Shown here in pieces: positions 9,897 to 16,800 of a DNA stretch of 64,000 bases. This DNA is from Calditrichota bacterium. GTDB lineage: Bacteria; Electryoneota; AABM5-125-24; Hatepunaeales; Hatepunaeaceae. Below the pieces are notes generated by a model. The model did not search any database. It saw only the letters and a list, made by a program, of their open reading frames with translations, and was not told the DNA's origin. The stretch is taken from positions 20,139 through 84,138 of the forward strand of contig JABGPL010000002.1 in NCBI GenBank assembly GCA_018644935.1. The letters run 5' to 3'. Both the position numbers and the translations under genes were made by a program. The stretch's first letter is position 1. Every line of letters begins with the position of its first letter.

Positions 9897-12764
9897 GTGA
9901 GAATTGTCATGCTAAAAAGAACTCTATTTTTCGCCGTGATTATAGCAATCACAGCATCCCAAGTGCTTGCCCTAAACTTTGATCCCCCCTTAAATGAGGG
10001 GGTTGAGTTCCCCGTTACGAGAGTTGACGAAGTTAGTGAGGTCGTAATGATGGTTATGGAAAACGATGATCGTCGGCCTTCAAGAATTTTGTTCGGAGAA
10101 TTTCAAAATCAGGTATTCAGTGTTAATCCAGCACAATTTCAAATTGAGCCAGGTCAGCGGATTGAGGTAACTTTCACATTTGAACCTCGAGAGGGTGGAG
10201 TGGTAGAGGAAAGGGCCAGGGTTACAATTGCGACAGCGAACGGGAATATGGAAGTGAGGGAGTACCCGATTAGCGGTGAAGGATTTGCCGGTTTTCCTGA
10301 AATTCGAGTTGACCCAATGGATATTGAGTTGGCACTTGGTGCACTGGGTGAGCATGTTGAAGAGATCGTGTCTATTTCAAATGGTGGACTTGCGGATCTG
10401 GAATTTCAGATTGAATTAGATGAAGATGTTGAATGGCTATATGTTGAGCCAATGCAGAGTGTTGTTGAACCTGATGAAAGGATGGAACTGACTGTATCCA
10501 CCACAGATTTTGTGCCGGCGCAGGGGGAGTACTTAACCAGAATCCGTATCCACTCAAACGATCCTGAACAGGAATTAGTTGAAATGACAGTGCAGTTTAG
10601 TGTGGGTTTTGAACCGACACTGACATTAGATCCGGGTATGATCGAAGAACAACTCGGCATAGATGCAAATGTAGAGATCGCCATTGAAGCAACAAACACA
10701 GGCGATGCGGAATTAGCGTTTAATATTGAGCGGAAACTTATCGGAGATCAAAACGCCGCCCCGTGGGATGAAAGATATAATGTGAATTATCAGGAACACC
10801 TGGAAGACAATGGTTTGCAGGGAGTGGTATTTGCTGAAGGTTCCTTTTTCGTAGCCAGTTCAAATGGAAATGGTGAAAGGGGGAAGATCTACGAGTTAAC
10901 ACCCGAGGGTGAGGTCGTAAATGAGTTCGACCAGTTTGTCAATTCCCGTTATGGAATGCGTGATTTAGCCTATGATGGAAATCTGATGTGGGGTTTGGAT
11001 AGTGGTGTTCTATATGGATTTACCACTGCAGGTGAATTGGAAACAACAATTGAAGTTCCCGATAATCTCAGTGTCAGATGTCTCGCATATGATCCGGACA
11101 ACTCCATTTTCTGGCTAGGCAATATCACAAATGACTTTTTCGCAGTCGATCTTGAAGGAAACTTGATTCGAACCGTAGACAGAAACCGGGAACTCCGAGC
11201 ATATGGACTGGCGTACTGGGGGGATGATCCGGATGGTTATTGCCTTTATGCAACAACTCCCGGGGTTGAGCAGGACATTACCATTAGTAAAATCAACACC
11301 GAAAATGGGGACTTTGAAATTGTTACCGAATTATCCTGCGGAAGTACTCGTCCGAGTGGGATAGCCATCACGAATAGATTTGATGCACTAAGTTGGGTGT
11401 TGGTCGCTCTTGTTCAGACTCCGGATCGCGTAGCAGTTTGGCAGCTCGACTCCAATCTCGACTGGTTTACCATTGAACCGGAAAATGCTGCGCTTGAAGC
11501 AGGAGATTCGCAAGACCTTACTGTCACATTAAATACAACTGGACTTCCGGAGGGCGAGTTTGAAGCTCAGTTCGTCCTCACTTTGGACAACGCCGGTGGT
11601 CAGGTAATTCTGCCAGTTGCCCTTACTGTTCAGGCTGGTGGAGTTCAGGAACGGGTAATTGAATTGAATGTAGGATGGAATATGGTTTCAACTAATGTCG
11701 TCCTTGAGGATGATGATATTTTTGTAATTATGAGTGAACTGGTTGAAGCTGAGCAACTTCTCCTAATGAAAGATGGATCAGGAAGATTCTACAGCCCTGC
11801 ATTTGGTTTTAACAATATTCCCGGTTGGGATGTTGCATCGGGGTATTTGATTAAAATGAACGATCCAAGCGAGCTCACTTTAACCGGAATGCCTGTTATG
11901 TTCGATGAGCCTATTGATCTCGTGGAAGGTTGGAATATGACTGCATATTATCCGCGTGTACCTGTGGCTGATATGATTGCATTATTCGGAATTGTCGACC
12001 AGCTTATCATGGCAAAGGATGGGGCGGGACGATTTTACTCCGTCGATTTCAATTTCAGCAACATGGGTGACATGGTAGAAGGGAGCGGTTACCAGATAAA
12101 GGTCGAAGAGGATGTGGTGCTGATCTATCGACTCGAAGAGGAGGGTCAGCTAAACATGACTTCACCTCTGAGATCAGAAAATGATCTCCTAAGGCTATCT
12201 GACTCAAACATGAGTGTATTGGTATACTGTGAAAGTTCCTATTCAGGCAGTGTGAGCGCGTATTCGGGTGACTTGTTGGTGGGTACTGGTGAAGTAGTAA
12301 ACGGAACAGGCGGATTGGCAGTCTGGGGTGATGACCCAACTACACCAGAGAAAGAAGGTCTTAAGACCGGTGAATCATTTGAACTCAGGTTCGGAAATCA
12401 ATCCAGTTTCAAATCATATGAAACCTTACAGGGAAATGGATTGATATACGAGACCAATGCATTTACCGCCCTGAAGATAGAACAAAACCAGAACCTCCCC
12501 CAGGATTACTATCTATCCGAAACCTACCCAAACCCGTTCAACAACCGCACAACAATAAGCTACGGATTGCCGGAATCGGGTGAGGTTTCCATAGGCATTT
12601 TCGACCTGAACGGCAGATCAGTAGAAACCTTACTGAACCAGCAGATCACAGCCGGTCACCACTCAATTACCTGGAATGCTGAAGACATGGGATCAGGGAC
12701 TTATCTGGTTAAGATGCAGGCTGGTGAGTTTAGCAACATCAGAAAAGTTGTTATGATCAAATAA
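9897..12764 (+). CDS. Large secreted protein (955 aa) with T9SS C-terminal sorting domain
   Basis: Signal peptide MLKRTLFFAVIIAITASQVLA. C-terminus YPNPFNNRTTISYGLPESGEVSIGIFDLNGRSVETL...GTYLVKMQAG matches the T9SS CTD. Confidence 0.6.
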   Translation: MRIVMLKRTLFFAVIIAITASQVLALNFDPPLNEGVEFPVTRVDEVSEVVMMVMENDDRRPSRILFGEFQNQVFSVNPAQFQIEPGQRIEVTFTFEPREGGVVEERARVTIATANGNMEVREYPISGEGFAGFPEIRVDPMDIELALGALGEHVEEIVSISNGGLADLEFQIELDEDVEWLYVEPMQSVVEPDERMELTVSTTDFVPAQGEYLTRIRIHSNDPEQELVEMTVQFSVGFEPTLTLDPGMIEEQLGIDANVEIAIEATNTGDAELAFNIERKLIGDQNAAPWDERYNVNYQEHLEDNGLQGVVFAEGSFFVASSNGNGERGKIYELTPEGEVVNEFDQFVNSRYGMRDLAYDGNLMWGLDSGVLYGFTTAGELETTIEVPDNLSVRCLAYDPDNSIFWLGNITNDFFAVDLEGNLIRTVDRNRELRAYGLAYWGDDPDGYCLYATTPGVEQDITISKINTENGDFEIVTELSCGSTRPSGIAITNRFDALSWVLVALVQTPDRVAVWQLDSNLDWFTIEPENAALEAGDSQDLTVTLNTTGLPEGEFEAQFVLTLDNAGGQVILPVALTVQAGGVQERVIELNVGWNMVSTNVVLEDDDIFVIMSELVEAEQLLLMKDGSGRFYSPAFGFNNIPGWDVASGYLIKMNDPSELTLTGMPVMFDEPIDLVEGWNMTAYYPRVPVADMIALFGIVDQLIMAKDGAGRFYSVDFNFSNMGDMVEGSGYQIKVEEDVVLIYRLEEEGQLNMTSPLRSENDLLRLSDSNMSVLVYCESSYSGSVSAYSGDLLVGTGEVVNGTGGLAVWGDDPTTPEKEGLKTGESFELRFGNQSSFKSYETLQGNGLIYETNAFTALKIEQNQNLPQDYYLSETYPNPFNNRTTISYGLPESGEVSIGIFDLNGRSVETLLNQQITAGHHSITWNAEDMGSGTYLVKMQAGEFSNIRKVVMIK

Positions 12765-12776
12765 CTTCCTTATATT

Positions 12777-12799
12777 CCCCCCTGCTATCGCAGGGGGGG
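12777..12799 (+). terminator. GC-rich hairpin (cccccctgc-tatc-gcaggggggg) just after the stop of the 955-aa CDS
   Basis: 9-bp perfect stem read directly. No clean T-run follows. Confidence 0.4.
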
Positions 12800-12849
12800 A
12801 ACGAAAGGGGGGGGCTTACCCTCAACAGACGACAGATCGCGCAATGTAT

Positions 12850-12881
12850 GGGCGATTCACGAATCGCCCTTTCTCTCTCCG
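12850..12881 (+). terminator. Rho-independent terminator (gggcgattc-acg-gaatcgccc followed by tttctctctcc)
   Basis: 9-bp stem plus a T-rich tail. Second of two tandem hairpins after the 955-aa CDS. Confidence 0.55.
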
Positions 12882-12984
12882 AATTTCACTTAACATCACC
12901 TCAACTCCCATCTCTCCCTTGAATTCCACCTTTTCAAGATTATATTGACTTTTGTATGACTTCATCAGCAAAATTTCTAATAAC

Positions 12985-13012
12985 TACGGCCGACAAAACC
13001 GCAGACGCAAGG
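12985..13012. repeat. REP hairpin (GCAGACGCAAGGCATTGCGTCTGTACAG), 38 bp upstream of the RAYT gene
   Basis: 8-bp stem agacgcaa/ttgcgtct with a 4-nt loop, flanked by GTAC. Same unit as the REPs at 13382, 13425, 13784 and 13828. Confidence 0.6.
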
Positions 13013-13050
13013 CATTGCGTCTGTACAGATAATGAATAGTGTAGTTACGG

Positions 13051-13704
13051 ATGACAGAAAAATACAAAAATAAATACAGAATTTCATCCGCTCGTTTAAA
13101 TGGCTGGGATTATGGTTGGGTAGCAGCTTATTTTGTTACCCTCTGCACCAAAAAACAAGAGCATTATTTTGGAAGAGTCGTTCGAGATGAAATGCAATTG
13201 TCATTAATCGGAAGAATCGTCTATGCCGAATGGATGAAAACTCCCACTATCCGTCCGGACATGAATTTAGAATTAGGGGAATTCGTGGTGATGCCGAATC
13301 ATTTTCACGCTGTTATTTTTATTGGAGATAATGAATTTAATCGGCATCCTGATCATTCAACTACAATACCCGCCAAAGAGTGTACAGACGCAATGCCTTG
13401 CGTCTCAATTTCCGCAAAAGAGCTCAGAGACGCAAAGCATTGCGTCTGTACATGGCAGAAAAACTCTGTTGAAACAGAATTCAAAAACTTATTTGCAGCT
13501 CAGTCAAAAAATCTGGCATCAATCATCCGCGGATTTAAAGCATCGGTAACAATAAATGCCCGTCGATTAACATCGGATTTCGGCTGGCAAGCTAGATTTC
13601 ATGATCACATAATCCGAAATGAGAAATCGTTCGCGAAGATTTTGGAATATATAAAATATAATCCATTAACATGGGAAAAAGACAAATTTAACAAAATGGG
13701 ATAA
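13051..13704 (+). CDS. REP-associated tyrosine transposase (RAYT; IS200/Y1 HuH family) carrying an in-frame REP-doublet insertion
   Basis: N-terminus YRISSARLNGWDYGWVAAYFVTLCTK is typical of Y1_Tnp/RAYT proteins. HuH motif MPNHFHAVIFI. C-terminal ...WQARFHDHIIRNEKSFAKILEYIKYNPLTW contains candidate catalytic Tyr. 217 aa against ~150-170 usual; the extra ~29 aa (IPAKECTDAMPCVSISAKELRDAKHCVCTW) are encoded by a REP doublet. Confidence 0.7.
   Translation: MTEKYKNKYRISSARLNGWDYGWVAAYFVTLCTKKQEHYFGRVVRDEMQLSLIGRIVYAEWMKTPTIRPDMNLELGEFVVMPNHFHAVIFIGDNEFNRHPDHSTTIPAKECTDAMPCVSISAKELRDAKHCVCTWQKNSVETEFKNLFAAQSKNLASIIRGFKASVTINARRLTSDFGWQARFHDHIIRNEKSFAKILEYIKYNPLTWEKDKFNKMG
13366..13452. repeat. REP doublet (inverted pair of REP hairpins) located inside the RAYT coding sequence, in frame
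   Basis: ~87 bp, nearly identical to the doublet at 13768-13856, including the flanking cccgyCAAAGAGTGTACAG and internal ...ttccrcaaaagarctcagag. The ORF remains open across it. Confidence 0.6.
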
Positions 13705-13767
13705 AAATCCCTGTAGTATGAGAATTGGCTGAAGAAACATAATAATCCAAATTGATCTTGCACATTA

Positions 13768-13856
13768 AATGCCCGTCAAAGAGTGTACAGACGCAATGCC
13801 TTGCGTCTCATAATTCCACCAAAGAACTCAGAGACGCAATGCTTTGCGTCTGTACA
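13768..13856. repeat. REP doublet 3' of the RAYT gene
   Basis: GTACAGACGCAATGCCTTGCGTCT ... CAGAGACGCAATGCTTTGCGTCTGTACAG; two hairpins in inverted orientation. Confidence 0.65.
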
Positions 13857-13897
13857 GATTCAATATCTCTCGGTTGCTGCTTTATCCTATATCAAAC

Positions 13898-16800
13898 CTA
13901 CCTGACCGCATAATACTTCCCTTCCTGATGATGAAACACAACCGCAGAAACCGAGCTTTCCGGACTCATCATCATACCTTCGGTCAGTGAAACACCTATG
14001 CGTTCTGGTTTTAGGAGGTCGAACAATGGGCGTTGGTCAGCGAGGTCGGGGCACGCGGGGTAGCCGAAGGATAGGCGAATGCCTCTGTATTTGGTTTTGA
14101 ACTGGTAGTCGAGATCGGTATCCTGCGGATCGGGGATTCCCCACTCCCGGCGCATTCTTATATGTACCCACTCGGCGGTGGCTTCGGCGAGTTCGATGGC
14201 TACAGCCTGCAGGATCATTGAGTCGAGTAACCTGCCCTCGGCTCGCATTTCTGCGGCGCGATCAATAGTGTCTGTTCCTGATGTAGTTACGAATAGACCA
14301 ATGGAGTCTCCGCCCAATCGTGGTGGACGAAGCCAATCTGCTGCACAGGTGCCTGTGTCTCCCTTTTCACGGGGGAAATTGAAGGTTACAGTGTCTATTG
14401 ATCCCGGGACAGTGACTTTGATTATATCGGTGCCGGGGCTTGCCGGGAACCAGCGGTAGAGTGCTCGGGGGGAAAGAATTCCCGCTTTTCGACCTTCCGC
14501 TGCAACCGTTTTTATCCGTTTCTGGAGGTCAATCAGCTTTGTGTCGTTCGGGTCTTTCATTCTTGCTTTTAACTTCGTGACACCGAGGTGTTTTCCGAGC
14601 AGCATCTGGGGGTTGATCAGGTCAAAGACTTCGTCAAAGGGGAGCTCCTTAAGGATGTGCTCTTCGTAATCGGGTGGTTCGGGCACTTCGCTTTCTATCC
14701 ACACGGAGGAGACAGGCTCTTTCTTTGCTTGAGGTTTCGCTGGTTTTACAGCTTTCGCTTTTTCCGTCCGTTTTACTGCATCAGCTTGTTGTTGAGTGAT
14801 TAACTCTGCGAGTTTTTCCGGCACAACTATTTTATTAGCCAGACCCAGCCCCTGCATTGCGTCGGATGCGTAGAAGGTCGGGGATTCATATGCGGGAGCT
14901 ATCTGGGTTTCAACAAATTTTTTAGTTAATGCAGCTCCACCGACCAGCATCGGCAGCTTGATCCCGGCAGCATTCAAATCCTCAGCAGTTGCTACCATCT
15001 GATGCGCACTGCGAACAAGTAAACCCGACAGCCCGATCATTGCGGGGTTATGTTCAGCAACAGCTTCAATCAGCTTTGCCGGAGGAACCTTTATCCCAAG
15101 GTTGATGATTTCAAAACCGTTGTTTGACAGTATCATGTCAACGAGGTTCTTGCCAATGTCGTGGACATCCCCTTTGACTGTCGCGATCAACATCTTACCC
15201 TTGATTGCCACTGACTCACCCGGTGGGAAGTACGGGCGGATGAAATCGACGGCGGCTTTCATGACCTCCGCCGATTCGAGAACTTCGGCTACAATAAGAC
15301 GATTATCCCCGAACAGTGTCCCGACCTCATCCATCCCTGCCATGAGTGGTCCGTTAATCAGATCAAGCGGACTCATCTTTTCGAGCATTTCAGCGAGGTT
15401 GATCTCCAGTCCTTCCCGGTTGGCTTCGACAACAGCTCTCGATACCTTCTCAGGAGTGGTAAGTTCTGCCCATTCGTCTTCGGTCGATTGGGGTGATACA
15501 TCCCGGAAGCGTGTGGTGAAATCCATGATTGATTTATTGTCACCGGTCAGGAGAAGGTTTTCTGCCAGTTTTCGGTCTTCGTCAGAAATGGTTGGGTATC
15601 GTTTCAAACCCTCTGTGTTCACGATTGCCAGATCAAGCCCGGCTTTTGCGCATTTATACAGAAAAACGGAGTTGACTACTTCACGACCTGCGGGAGGTAG
15701 TCCGAATGATACATTTGAAATCCCGAGTAATGTCAGGCAGTTTGGGAATCTTTCCTTTATCGCTTTGGTGCCCTGTATGGTTGCTTCGGCTGTGCCGAGA
15801 TATGCAGGATCGCCAGTTGCAGCTGGGAAGACCAGGGGATCAAAGATTATGTCACCTTCGGGAATTCCGAATTCTGTAGTGAGTATTCCATGGATTCTCT
15901 CAGCGATCTCCAGTTTGCGCTCAACTGTCGTCGCCATGCCCTGTTCAGGATCTTCGTCGATAACACCACAGACGAGTGATGCACCATATTTTCGAGCCAG
16001 TTCCGCAACGTAGCGCAGGCGTTTTCCACCATCCTCGAGGTTGACGGAATTTATTGCTGGTTTTCCGCCGATATTCTTCAGCCCGGCTTCGACAACCTTG
16101 GGGTCAGTAGTGTCCATCATTATGGGGACACGTACCTTGCGAAGTAGCGGACGAAGCACTCCTGTAAAATCTTCGAGCTCGTCCCGGTCGGGATTGGCAA
16201 CGCACAGATCAATGACCATTGCGCTCTTCTTAACCTGCTTACGGCCAATTTCGGCAGATGCATCCCATTTTTCCTGTGAGACGAGGCGTTTAAATTTCCG
16301 GCTGCCGATAGTGTTCGTTCTTTCCCCGACGAAAACGGGACGGTTGTCATCTTCAACGACCATTGCCTCAGCTCCAGCAAGGGCAGGAAAACGTCCGTCT
16401 TTAACCGGTATCCTCGGAGGAATGCCACGAATAACTGAGCAAACCGCACTGATATGTTCGTTTGATGTTCCACAACAACCACCGATGATGTTTACAAATC
16501 CGTCGTTGGCAAACCGCTCGATTATTTTGCTGAACACTTCAGGAGTATCTGTATACTTACCCTCTGTATTCGGCAACCCGGCATTGGGCCAAGCGGACAC
16601 AGGGAAACGTGATATCTGTGAAAGTGTTCGCAGGTGGTCTGTCATTGCTGCGGGACCAGTTGCACAGTTTAAGCCGATAGAGAGGAGATCAAAATGGCAG
16701 ATGGAGTGGTATAAAGCCTCGATGTTCTGCCCGGCGAGCATCGTCCCGTTGGGTTCAATGGTCACAGAAACTGAGACAGGAGCTTCGCGATCAAGATCTT

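Follow-up and report, generated by a model that had tools for sequence, protein, structure and literature searches.

In-frame repetitive extragenic palindromes (REPs) situated between the HuH motif and the catalytic tyrosine have been described as a 'unique feature' of TnpA_Y1 subclass 2.4, which corresponds to Bertels Group 4 of the REP-associated tyrosine transposases (RAYTs) (Quentin et al., 2018, BMC Genomics 19:475, PMC6006769). Proteins of this subclass share the motifs NH[IFV]H, WQ and YIxNNP, have a mean length of 194 aa and contain a β3-αC insertion, variable in both length and sequence, which a homology model of the subclass places at the periphery (PMC6006769). Table S1 of that study lists for subclass 2.4 both GTAGAGACGCAATGCATTGCGTCTCTAC, which encodes RDAMHCVST, and GTACAGACGCACTGTCGTGCGTCTCAA, which consists of a GTAC foot, an 8-bp AGACGCAC stem, a 4-nt loop and a CTCAA tail (PMC6006769). 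A double-foot REP can come from an inverted dimer via a central deletion (Quentin et al., PMC6006769). Within genera, the evolution of Group 4 RAYTs is slow and vertical, and their flanking 16-mers number only ~14 per replicon (Bertels et al., 2017). Here we describe a locus in a 64-kb stretch of a Calditrichota bacterium contig (JABGPL010000002.1; the whole analysed stretch is called the window) in which a RAYT gene is preceded by one REP, followed by a REP doublet and interrupted, in frame, by a second copy of that doublet. It is quite likely that the locus is a REPtron, that is, a single-copy HUH/Tyr nuclease gene with its cognate REPs. The window provides an ordinary further example of the in-frame REPs already described in subclass 2.4 RAYTs.

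Judged by its sequence and modelled structure, the window gene encodes a RAYT-type HUH-Y1 protein, a domesticated transposase of subclass 2.4, in agreement with the identification as a RAYT in an earlier note on this DNA. The sequence matches E. coli TnpA_REP in the PDB (4er8) over the HuH segment and the WQ...Y segment. H84 and H86 align with the HuH motif of 4er8, and Y200, which lies in helix 191-211 of the model, aligns with its catalytic Y115; both NHFH and this tyrosine are invariant in 26 homologues. NF047646 (REP-associated tyrosine transposase) is the sole NCBIfam match. The subclass 2.4 signature NH[IFV]H / WQ / YIxNNP is present as NHFH, WQ and YIKYNP, the last of which departs from the signature once, at position 4; the consensus in the homologue alignment is YIxNNP. 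A database search (E<=0.001) returned 4220 homologues, of which the best 120 are 180-264 aa long, and the length differences in the protein alignment fall almost wholly in the β3-αC region. In an AlphaFold model built with the 26 homologues, the core has a predicted local distance difference test score (pLDDT) of 76-97, and residues 101-148, which connect the HuH strand (84-91) to a long helix (150-170), score below 50. The best Foldseek match in the PDB is 4er8_A (E 2e-5), followed by the TnpA proteins of IS200, ISDra2 and IS608; the modest template-modelling scores against 4er8_A (0.43/0.56) reflect the disorder of the insert. The earlier note had proposed to check by modelling whether the REP-encoded segment occupies a surface loop; in the model it falls in this low-confidence stretch between β3 and αC, a putative loop.

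A search of the window with the pattern AGACGCAANGCNTTGCGTCT, allowing up to two mismatches, recovered five hairpins of the form AGACGCAA-N4-TTGCGTCT, or more exactly AGACGCAA-N-GC-N-TTGCGTCT, where none would be expected by chance. All five lie at the RAYT gene (Table 1), and a looser scan of the 64 kb for GAC-stem-GTC palindromes added no further REP-type hairpin. The confinement of the REP to the RAYT locus within 64 kb is compatible with the low abundance reported for Group 4. Each REP pairs an 8-bp stem, AGACGCAA/TTGCGTCT, with a GTAC foot, and the set was correctly taken in the earlier note to be cognate to the gene that it flanks. The arrangement is that of a REPtron, in which one REP precedes the RAYT start codon by 24 bp and a REP doublet follows the stop codon at 49 bp. 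The upstream REP had been placed at 12985-13012 and 38 bp from the gene; it is present, but those positions are about 15 bp off. It is an exact 25-nt reverse complement (100%) of the first REP in both doublets and folds at -10.5 kcal/mol (z -5.0).

The downstream doublet was said to be repeated almost base for base inside the open reading frame (ORF). The duplication is real and longer than supposed (~105 nt), although the wording was a little generous, since the two copies are about 87-90% identical. Between the internal and downstream doublets the column identity is 89%, with one 1-nt indel. The copies agree fully in both 8-bp stems and in the GTAC feet, and the REP cores differ at only two positions, both of them loop positions of the second REP; ~9 substitutions and three indels fall in the 5' flank and the spacer, and on the 3' side similarity ends exactly after GTACA. 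Inside the gene the two hairpins are 42 nt apart, so that the frame is kept and a peptide containing CTDAMPCVSISAKELRDAKHCVCT is encoded in an ORF that stays open, between the HuH motif and the tyrosine helix as had been claimed. Downstream of the gene they are 43 nt apart, and the equivalent frame would hit a TAA stop. The GTAC feet stand on the outer side of each hairpin in both doublets, and the DNA of each doublet folds into a single long hairpin (z about -8.8, -28.4 and -26.4 kcal/mol); the doublets are therefore REPIN-like (REPIN, REP doublet forming a hairpin).

Three other descriptions of these repeats were considered and set aside. A direct repeat (42/43-nt periodicity, 60-62% identity) was rejected, as the feet are inverted and the strand folds as one hairpin. 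Rfam (positions 12600-14100, E<=1) gave only microRNA-precursor matches on the doublets, at 21-33 bits against cut-offs of 54.5-230, which we attribute to a generic long-hairpin resemblance. CGTC-tagged REPs (PMC3733652), which are said to lack a transposase, were considered for the GACGC/GCGTC stem and discarded in view of the GTAG/GTAC foot and of the different layout of stem and tail. As a separate observation, a 15/16-nt match (ACAATAAATGCCCGTC / ACATTAAATGCCCGTC) links positions 13549-13564 in the RAYT ORF, 100 nt past the internal doublet, with positions 13762-13777, just 5' of the downstream doublet. No other 12-mer of the module occurs at another place in the window, and the match may be due to chance or be the trace of an older rearrangement.

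Table 1. Features of the RAYT locus; positions are those of the 64-kb window
Feature	Position	Strand	Remarks
Upstream single REP, AGACGCAA-GGCA-TTGCGTCT	hairpin 13003-13022; GTAC foot 13023-13026		24 bp before the RAYT ATG
RAYT / TnpA_REP gene	13051-13704	+	single ORF, 217 aa; TnpA_Y1 subclass 2.4 (= Bertels Group 4), as judged by sequence and model
HuH motif NHFH (H84/H86)	13300-13308	+	in the RAYT ORF; motifs compared with Table 1 of PMC6006769
Intragenic REP module	13350-13453	+	in frame, aa ~101-134
Order within the intragenic module	5' flank; GTAC 13382-13385; hairpin 13386-13405; 22-nt spacer; hairpin 13428-13447; GTAC 13448-13451
Variable β3-αC loop, residues 101-148	coding region 13351-13494	+	pLDDT <50; holds the intragenic REP module
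WQ motif			aa 179-180 of the RAYT protein
Catalytic Tyr Y200 (YIKYNP)	13648-13650	+	in the RAYT ORF
Extragenic REP doublet, REPIN-like	13753-13857	+	paralogue of the intragenic module; between the convergent RAYT and metH 3' ends
Order within the extragenic doublet	GTAC 13785-13788; hairpin 13789-13808; 23-nt spacer; hairpin 13832-13851; GTAC 13852-13855

We compared 80 genomic loci of homologues, which together with the window give 81 genes from many phyla; the loci come from Bacteroidota and from metagenome-assembled genomes (MAGs) labelled Acidobacteria-type Pyrinomonadaceae, Cloacimonadota, WOR-3, Calditrichales and Ignavibacteria. A single ORF spans HuH to Tyr in all 81. At least one internal GAC-stem-GTC palindrome lies in the β3-αC loop of 56 genes (one in 45, two in 11), and a perfect internal hairpin with a stem of at least 7 bp is found in 68. 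The 13 intact genes that have no such hairpin, several of which keep flanking REPs, show that the internal copy is not obligatory. The usual internal element is a 28-nt double-foot REP of the form GTAG-AGAC-inner-GTCT-CTAC (GTAGAGAC...GTCTCTAC), at a median of 326 nt from the gene start. Within the gene there are 1.39 REPs per kb and within 300 bp of it 1.73 per kb, but only 0.037 per kb in the remaining flanks out to 10 kb. In the protein alignment, RDAMHCVST recurs in the variable region of nearly all close homologues; back-translated, it reads AGA GAC GCA ATG CAT TGC GTC TCT AC, which is the REP palindrome itself. The second internal hairpin of the window aligns with this family-wide, double-foot segment, and only the first hairpin and the spacer are extra relative to single-REP homologues. 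Residues ~106-134, which the earlier note regarded as an insertion, are thus additional in their first part and shared with the family in their second, and the segment that homologues carry at the equivalent place is itself REP-like, so that the refuting case set out in that note, an equivalent segment without REP character in its DNA, does not apply. Internal doublets have also arisen independently in four other loci (L021, L071, L076 and L009), and flanking doublets mirror the internal ones in L021, where the spacing is 48 nt in both, and in L076.

Two further properties of the internal REPs bear on what is being conserved. Among 67 internal REPs two reading frames are used, 32 and 35 times, giving RDAMHCVST or VETQCIASL, and the third frame, in which the GTAG foot gives a TAG stop, is used by none (0/67). 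Frame preservation therefore stems partly from the sequence of the element itself and from selection for an intact gene. Within the RDAMHCVST frame, the residue at the cysteine position (Cys, Arg or Gly) tracks the synonymous third base of the alanine codon on the opposite arm in 26/26 cases, the pairs being GCA..TGC, GCG..CGC and GCC..GGC. As far as can be read from such co-variation, selection works on DNA pairing and not on the peptide. In addition, the inner-stem triplet is common to internal and flanking REPs in 27 of 30 loci (5000 permutations averaged 8.5 and never exceeded 17), so the internal and flanking copies evolve in concert.

The same survey turned up other configurations of intragenic REPs. 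A second, rarer site near residue 45 (~126-143 nt into the gene) occurs in L004, L013, L022 and L029, and is read as VETxCxAS in three of the four and as TDALTCV in L013; it may correspond to the small αB-loop insertion of subclass 2.4 (Quentin et al., PMC6006769). In the proteins P0004 and P0002 (alignment columns ~100-290) the HuH-containing segment is directly duplicated, the repeat in P0004 being ...FELRPDMNL...MPNHFHAIIGIGENEFNTPSRGMGRDAMHCVST, and each copy in both proteins ends at the REP-encoded RDAMHCVST; the arrangement of these sequences suggests REP-mediated segmental duplication within the gene. A Bacteroidales MAG (L011) holds, downstream of its RAYT homologue (10001-10597), a tandem array at 12081-13004 with 5.2 copies of a 179-bp unit (95% matches) that includes the double-foot REP GTAGAGACGCGATGCATCGCGTCTCTAC. 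The array lies between an HsdM-like ORF (10607-12079) and an HsdS-like ORF, labels that are a reading of the translations only.

We consider it most likely that the gene tolerates the intragenic REP as a passenger, which evolves together with the flanking REPs. Going by the E. coli, Stenotrophomonas and Marinomonas enzymes, the RAYT protein would bind the folded REP in single-stranded DNA and would cut and rejoin beside the hairpin, with the foot tetranucleotide as its guide. REPs of subclass 2.4 lie next to the gene and, in the majority of members, within it as well, in a variable and probably disordered loop between β3 and αC. Internal copies would survive there because this loop accepts arbitrary peptide, because the palindrome is open in two of three frames (in all three with a GTAC foot) and because the gene keeps working only if the copy is in frame. 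RAYT-mediated copying, or gene conversion across the few hundred bp that separate them, would keep internal copies like the flanking ones. In the window, one of the internal and downstream doublets would have arisen from the other, in either direction, by copying of a ~105-nt module whose end coincides exactly with the GTACA foot, after which the spacer and flank would have diverged as the stems and feet stayed identical. Re-copying or conversion from neighbouring REPs would be repeated, and filtered for an open frame, and the encoded peptide (TDAMPCVS...RDAKHCVCT) would be a by-product of the DNA palindrome and not a functional motif. Where most relatives hold the collapsed double-foot form, the window has the inverted-dimer state.

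A number of points weigh against the assignment and the mechanism just set out. Both curated hidden Markov model cut-offs are missed, NF047646 scoring 57.3 bits against 80 and PF01797 (Y1_Tnp, Pfam) 13.2 against 23; the HUH-Y1 domain is interrupted by a ~50-aa loop, and the NF047646 model is an equivalog. RAYT biochemistry covers Groups 2 and 3 only (PMC8266576), and binding and cleavage of GTAC-footed REPs by a subclass 2.4 / Group 4 protein are accordingly a prediction. In those groups the GTAG foot guides the choice of cleavage site, and a change from GTAG to GTAC abolished cleavage in Stenotrophomonas and retargeted it in another system (PMC8266576). Since GTAC abolished cleavage by the Stenotrophomonas enzyme, the window protein would, by analogy, have to be matched to its GTAC foot. 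At the population level, the variants of the window locus differ by two coding substitutions only, both non-synonymous, and so provide no demonstration of purifying selection on this allele. Finally, the near-universal occurrence of perfect-stemmed REPs at a single loop is also compatible with positive selection for a cis element inside the gene.

This last point leads to the most serious competing explanation, which we nevertheless regard as unlikely, namely that the internal REP is a functional cis element and no passenger. It could be a site at which the RAYT binds its own gene or mRNA, with feedback on expression, or a protected master copy, which would ensure that RAYT and REP are inherited together and would give rise to flanking or dispersed copies. 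The presence of the element in at least 56/81 genes from many phyla, at the same loop and with perfect 12-13-bp stems, is what such a role would predict. So is the co-variation of the inner stem with the flanking REPs (27/30), as if the protein must recognise the internal copy, and so, in the window, is the identity of stems and feet between copies whose spacer and flank have diverged. However, the same patterns follow from local re-copying combined with a filter for an intact ORF, 13 intact genes do without an internal hairpin (several of them with flanking REPs), and neither the copy number (0, 1 or 2) nor the exact position, the frame or the spacer is constant. The corresponding proposal for the subclass as a whole, in which selection keeps the intragenic REP, as the recognition hairpin of the enzyme within its own coding sequence, to serve as an autoregulatory site or protected master copy and the window doublet is its REPIN-state variant, seems rather doubtful to us. 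If it were true, RAYT and REP specificity would have been locked together over very long evolutionary times.

Compared with the passenger reading, a recent self-insertion of a REP doublet at this particular locus, adding 29 aa and possibly inactivating the transposase, is improbable. This was the idea put forward in the earlier note, together with that of a special exaptation, and several features speak for it: the ~105-nt module is duplicated at ~87-90% with its non-REP flank and spacer included, and the first hairpin and spacer are extra relative to single-REP homologues. That both coding differences among the population variants are non-synonymous would also fit. On the other side, the second hairpin is positionally homologous to the conserved REP of the family, internal doublets have arisen independently in the four loci named above, and the non-core parts of the two copies are ~20% diverged, so the copying was not very recent. 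An internal REP at the same loop in 56/81 homologous genes, and the description of in-frame REPs in subclass 2.4 in 2018 (Quentin et al., PMC6006769), speak against an event particular to this locus. Inactivation appears unlikely from the sequence, as the protein retains intact HuH, WQ and Tyr motifs and every one of the 81 genes has an undisrupted ORF; the loop is moreover modelled as disordered and away from the conserved core.

The locus in other assemblies bears on the same question. It occurs in three further assemblies, with 0-3 substitutions each, and the ORF is identical in three assemblies and 99% identical in a fourth (window, L201, L202/L174 and L203). Exact-protein look-ups return the same locus only. 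The earlier note had proposed looking for an uninterrupted allele in sister genomes; none was found among the homologues, which fall into two groups, those of 99% identity or more, every one of which carries the doublet, and those of 57% identity or less. These data also dispose of an assembly artefact, in which a repeat-induced mis-join would have put a copy of the downstream doublet inside the ORF: although the DNA probably stems from a metagenome assembly and the short repeats lie near one another, the arrangement is shared by four independent assemblies, the module copies differ at ~13 positions and are thus not collapsed duplicates, and homologues elsewhere have the same architecture, so that we give this explanation next to no weight.

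Only marginally more credible is the notion that the RDAMHCVST-type residues form a functional peptide motif, for instance one that binds metal through Cys and His, and that the palindrome is incidental. D127, V132 and T134 are nearly invariant in the close-homologue alignment, as such a motif would require, but the palindrome is read in the second frame (VETQCIASL) in 35/67 cases, the cysteine gives way to Arg or Gly as a synonymous base of the opposite arm changes, the same sequence also occurs outside the gene, and the segment is modelled with low confidence. The use of two frames effectively excludes a function at the peptide level.

The REP type is found well beyond the window organism. 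A metagenome scan for GTACAGACGCAANGCNTTGCGTCT, i.e. GTAC-AGACGCAA-NGCN-TTGCGTCT, matched at least 120 stretches, of which 80 were examined; 71 of these 80 are contigs without a RAYT, mostly with one REP each. The occurrence of REPs on such contigs indicates that the GTAC-footed REP is a real dispersed repeat in several communities. Among the at least 120 matches listed, one came from the window organism and is the same locus, and no further copy of the ~105-nt module was present beyond that locus, which leaves the two copies at the RAYT gene as the only ones seen. An open frame of at least 100 codons spans 72 of 143 dispersed REPs and 299 of 360 random sites, which suggests that dispersed REPs are depleted from genes; the criterion is a weak one, as the REP itself is open in most frames. 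One 1501-bp metagenome contig (L105, Ga0099364_10380622) carries a RAYT homologue with 49% identity amid 12 AGACGC...GCGTCT hairpins, including seven exact GTAC-footed matches, two inside the gene and five within 300 bp downstream.

As regards the neighbourhood of the gene, the protein encoded upstream has 955 aa and a type A sorting domain of the type IX secretion system (T9SS; TIGR04183, 39.7 bits, cut-off 23), which makes the attribution of the locus to a T9SS-type lineage a reasonable one. Two unrelated GC-rich hairpins lie past the gene for this protein, at 12777-12798 (CCCCCCTGCTATCGCAGGGGGG) and at 12850-12869 (GGGCGATTCACGAATCGCCC, followed by a T-rich run), and the second was called terminator-like. 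On the other side the RAYT gene converges with metH (TIGR02082, 1073 bits), whose stop codon ends (13898) ~40 bp from the downstream doublet. This doublet could serve RAYT and metH as a bidirectional terminator or an mRNA-stabilising hairpin; a simple scan for terminators passed it over, as it is not followed by a T-run.

Taken alone, the locus matters little, being one more REPtron of a subclass whose in-frame intragenic REPs have been known since 2018. What it adds is an internal doublet of REPIN-like form in place of a single double-foot REP, a GTAC foot, and a ~105-nt module shared with the downstream doublet. The family-level counts sharpen the 2018 description in several ways: only stop-free frames are used, the Cys/Arg/Gly residue is set by a synonymous base on the opposite arm, internal and flanking REPs co-vary, and REPs are ~40 times denser at the gene than across the 10 kb around it. 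Subclass 2.4 thereby offers a clean natural case of a peptide sequence set by DNA secondary structure, and a good system in which to ask whether RAYTs prefer to act in cis.

Among known systems, the IS200/IS605 elements are multicopy, have distinct left and right subterminal hairpins and often carry tnpB. Their TnpA proteins share with the window protein the same fold and the recognition of hairpins in single-stranded DNA (predicted for the window protein). The window locus was, in contrast, seen once only, with no second copy in the window and no adjoining tnpB; its neighbours are of housekeeping type, the hairpins are identical on both sides of and inside the gene, and the WQ and YIxNNP motifs are RAYT-specific. 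Rickettsia palindromic elements (RPEs) and the intragenic GTAG/CGTC REPs of Di Nocera et al. (2013, PMC3733652) resemble the window module in being in-frame palindromes that add peptide to tolerated parts of proteins. These palindromes lie in unrelated host genes, whereas the window REP lies in its own presumed mobilising enzyme and at the same loop throughout the family. REPINs and the window doublets have in common that two inverted REPs form one long hairpin. The former, reportedly described by Bertels and Rainey in 2011, are said to be associated with Group 2/3 RAYTs and to reach tens to hundreds of copies per genome. Unlike these classical REPINs, the window module was seen only twice, with both copies at the RAYT gene.

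E. coli TnpA_REP, a Group 2 RAYT (4ER8), shares with the window protein an HUH-Y1 fold, a catalytic tyrosine on the C-terminal helix and a REP-flanked gene, as well as a W-Q...R segment that contacts the GTAG guide in E. coli. The E. coli protein and its structure were reportedly described in 2012 by Messing and colleagues and by Ton-Hoang and colleagues. Identity between the two proteins is only ~17%, and the E. coli system differs in its bulged REP stem, its strict GTAG foot and its lack of both a REP in the gene and a β3-αC insertion. It is on this Group 2 enzyme, and not on subclass 2.4, that biochemistry has been done (Corneloup et al., 2021, PMC8266576). The closest match is provided by the subclass 2.4 REPtrons, which have the same motifs, the β3-αC insertion, and REPs both flanking the gene and in frame between HuH and Tyr. 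The REP types listed for them in Table S1 include the double-foot GTAG-AGAC...GTCT-CTAC and GTAC-AGACGCAC-N4-GTGCGTCT, and the latter has the architecture of the window REP; they are also spread widely and patchily over phyla, as is the family of the window gene. The window departs from the usual subclass 2.4 REPtron in that its internal copy is an inverted single-foot doublet instead of one double-foot REP, in the tyrosine that forms the fourth residue of its Y motif (YIKYNP), and in a HuH-Tyr distance of 114 aa against a subclass median of 88. These differences are variation inside the range already described for the subclass.

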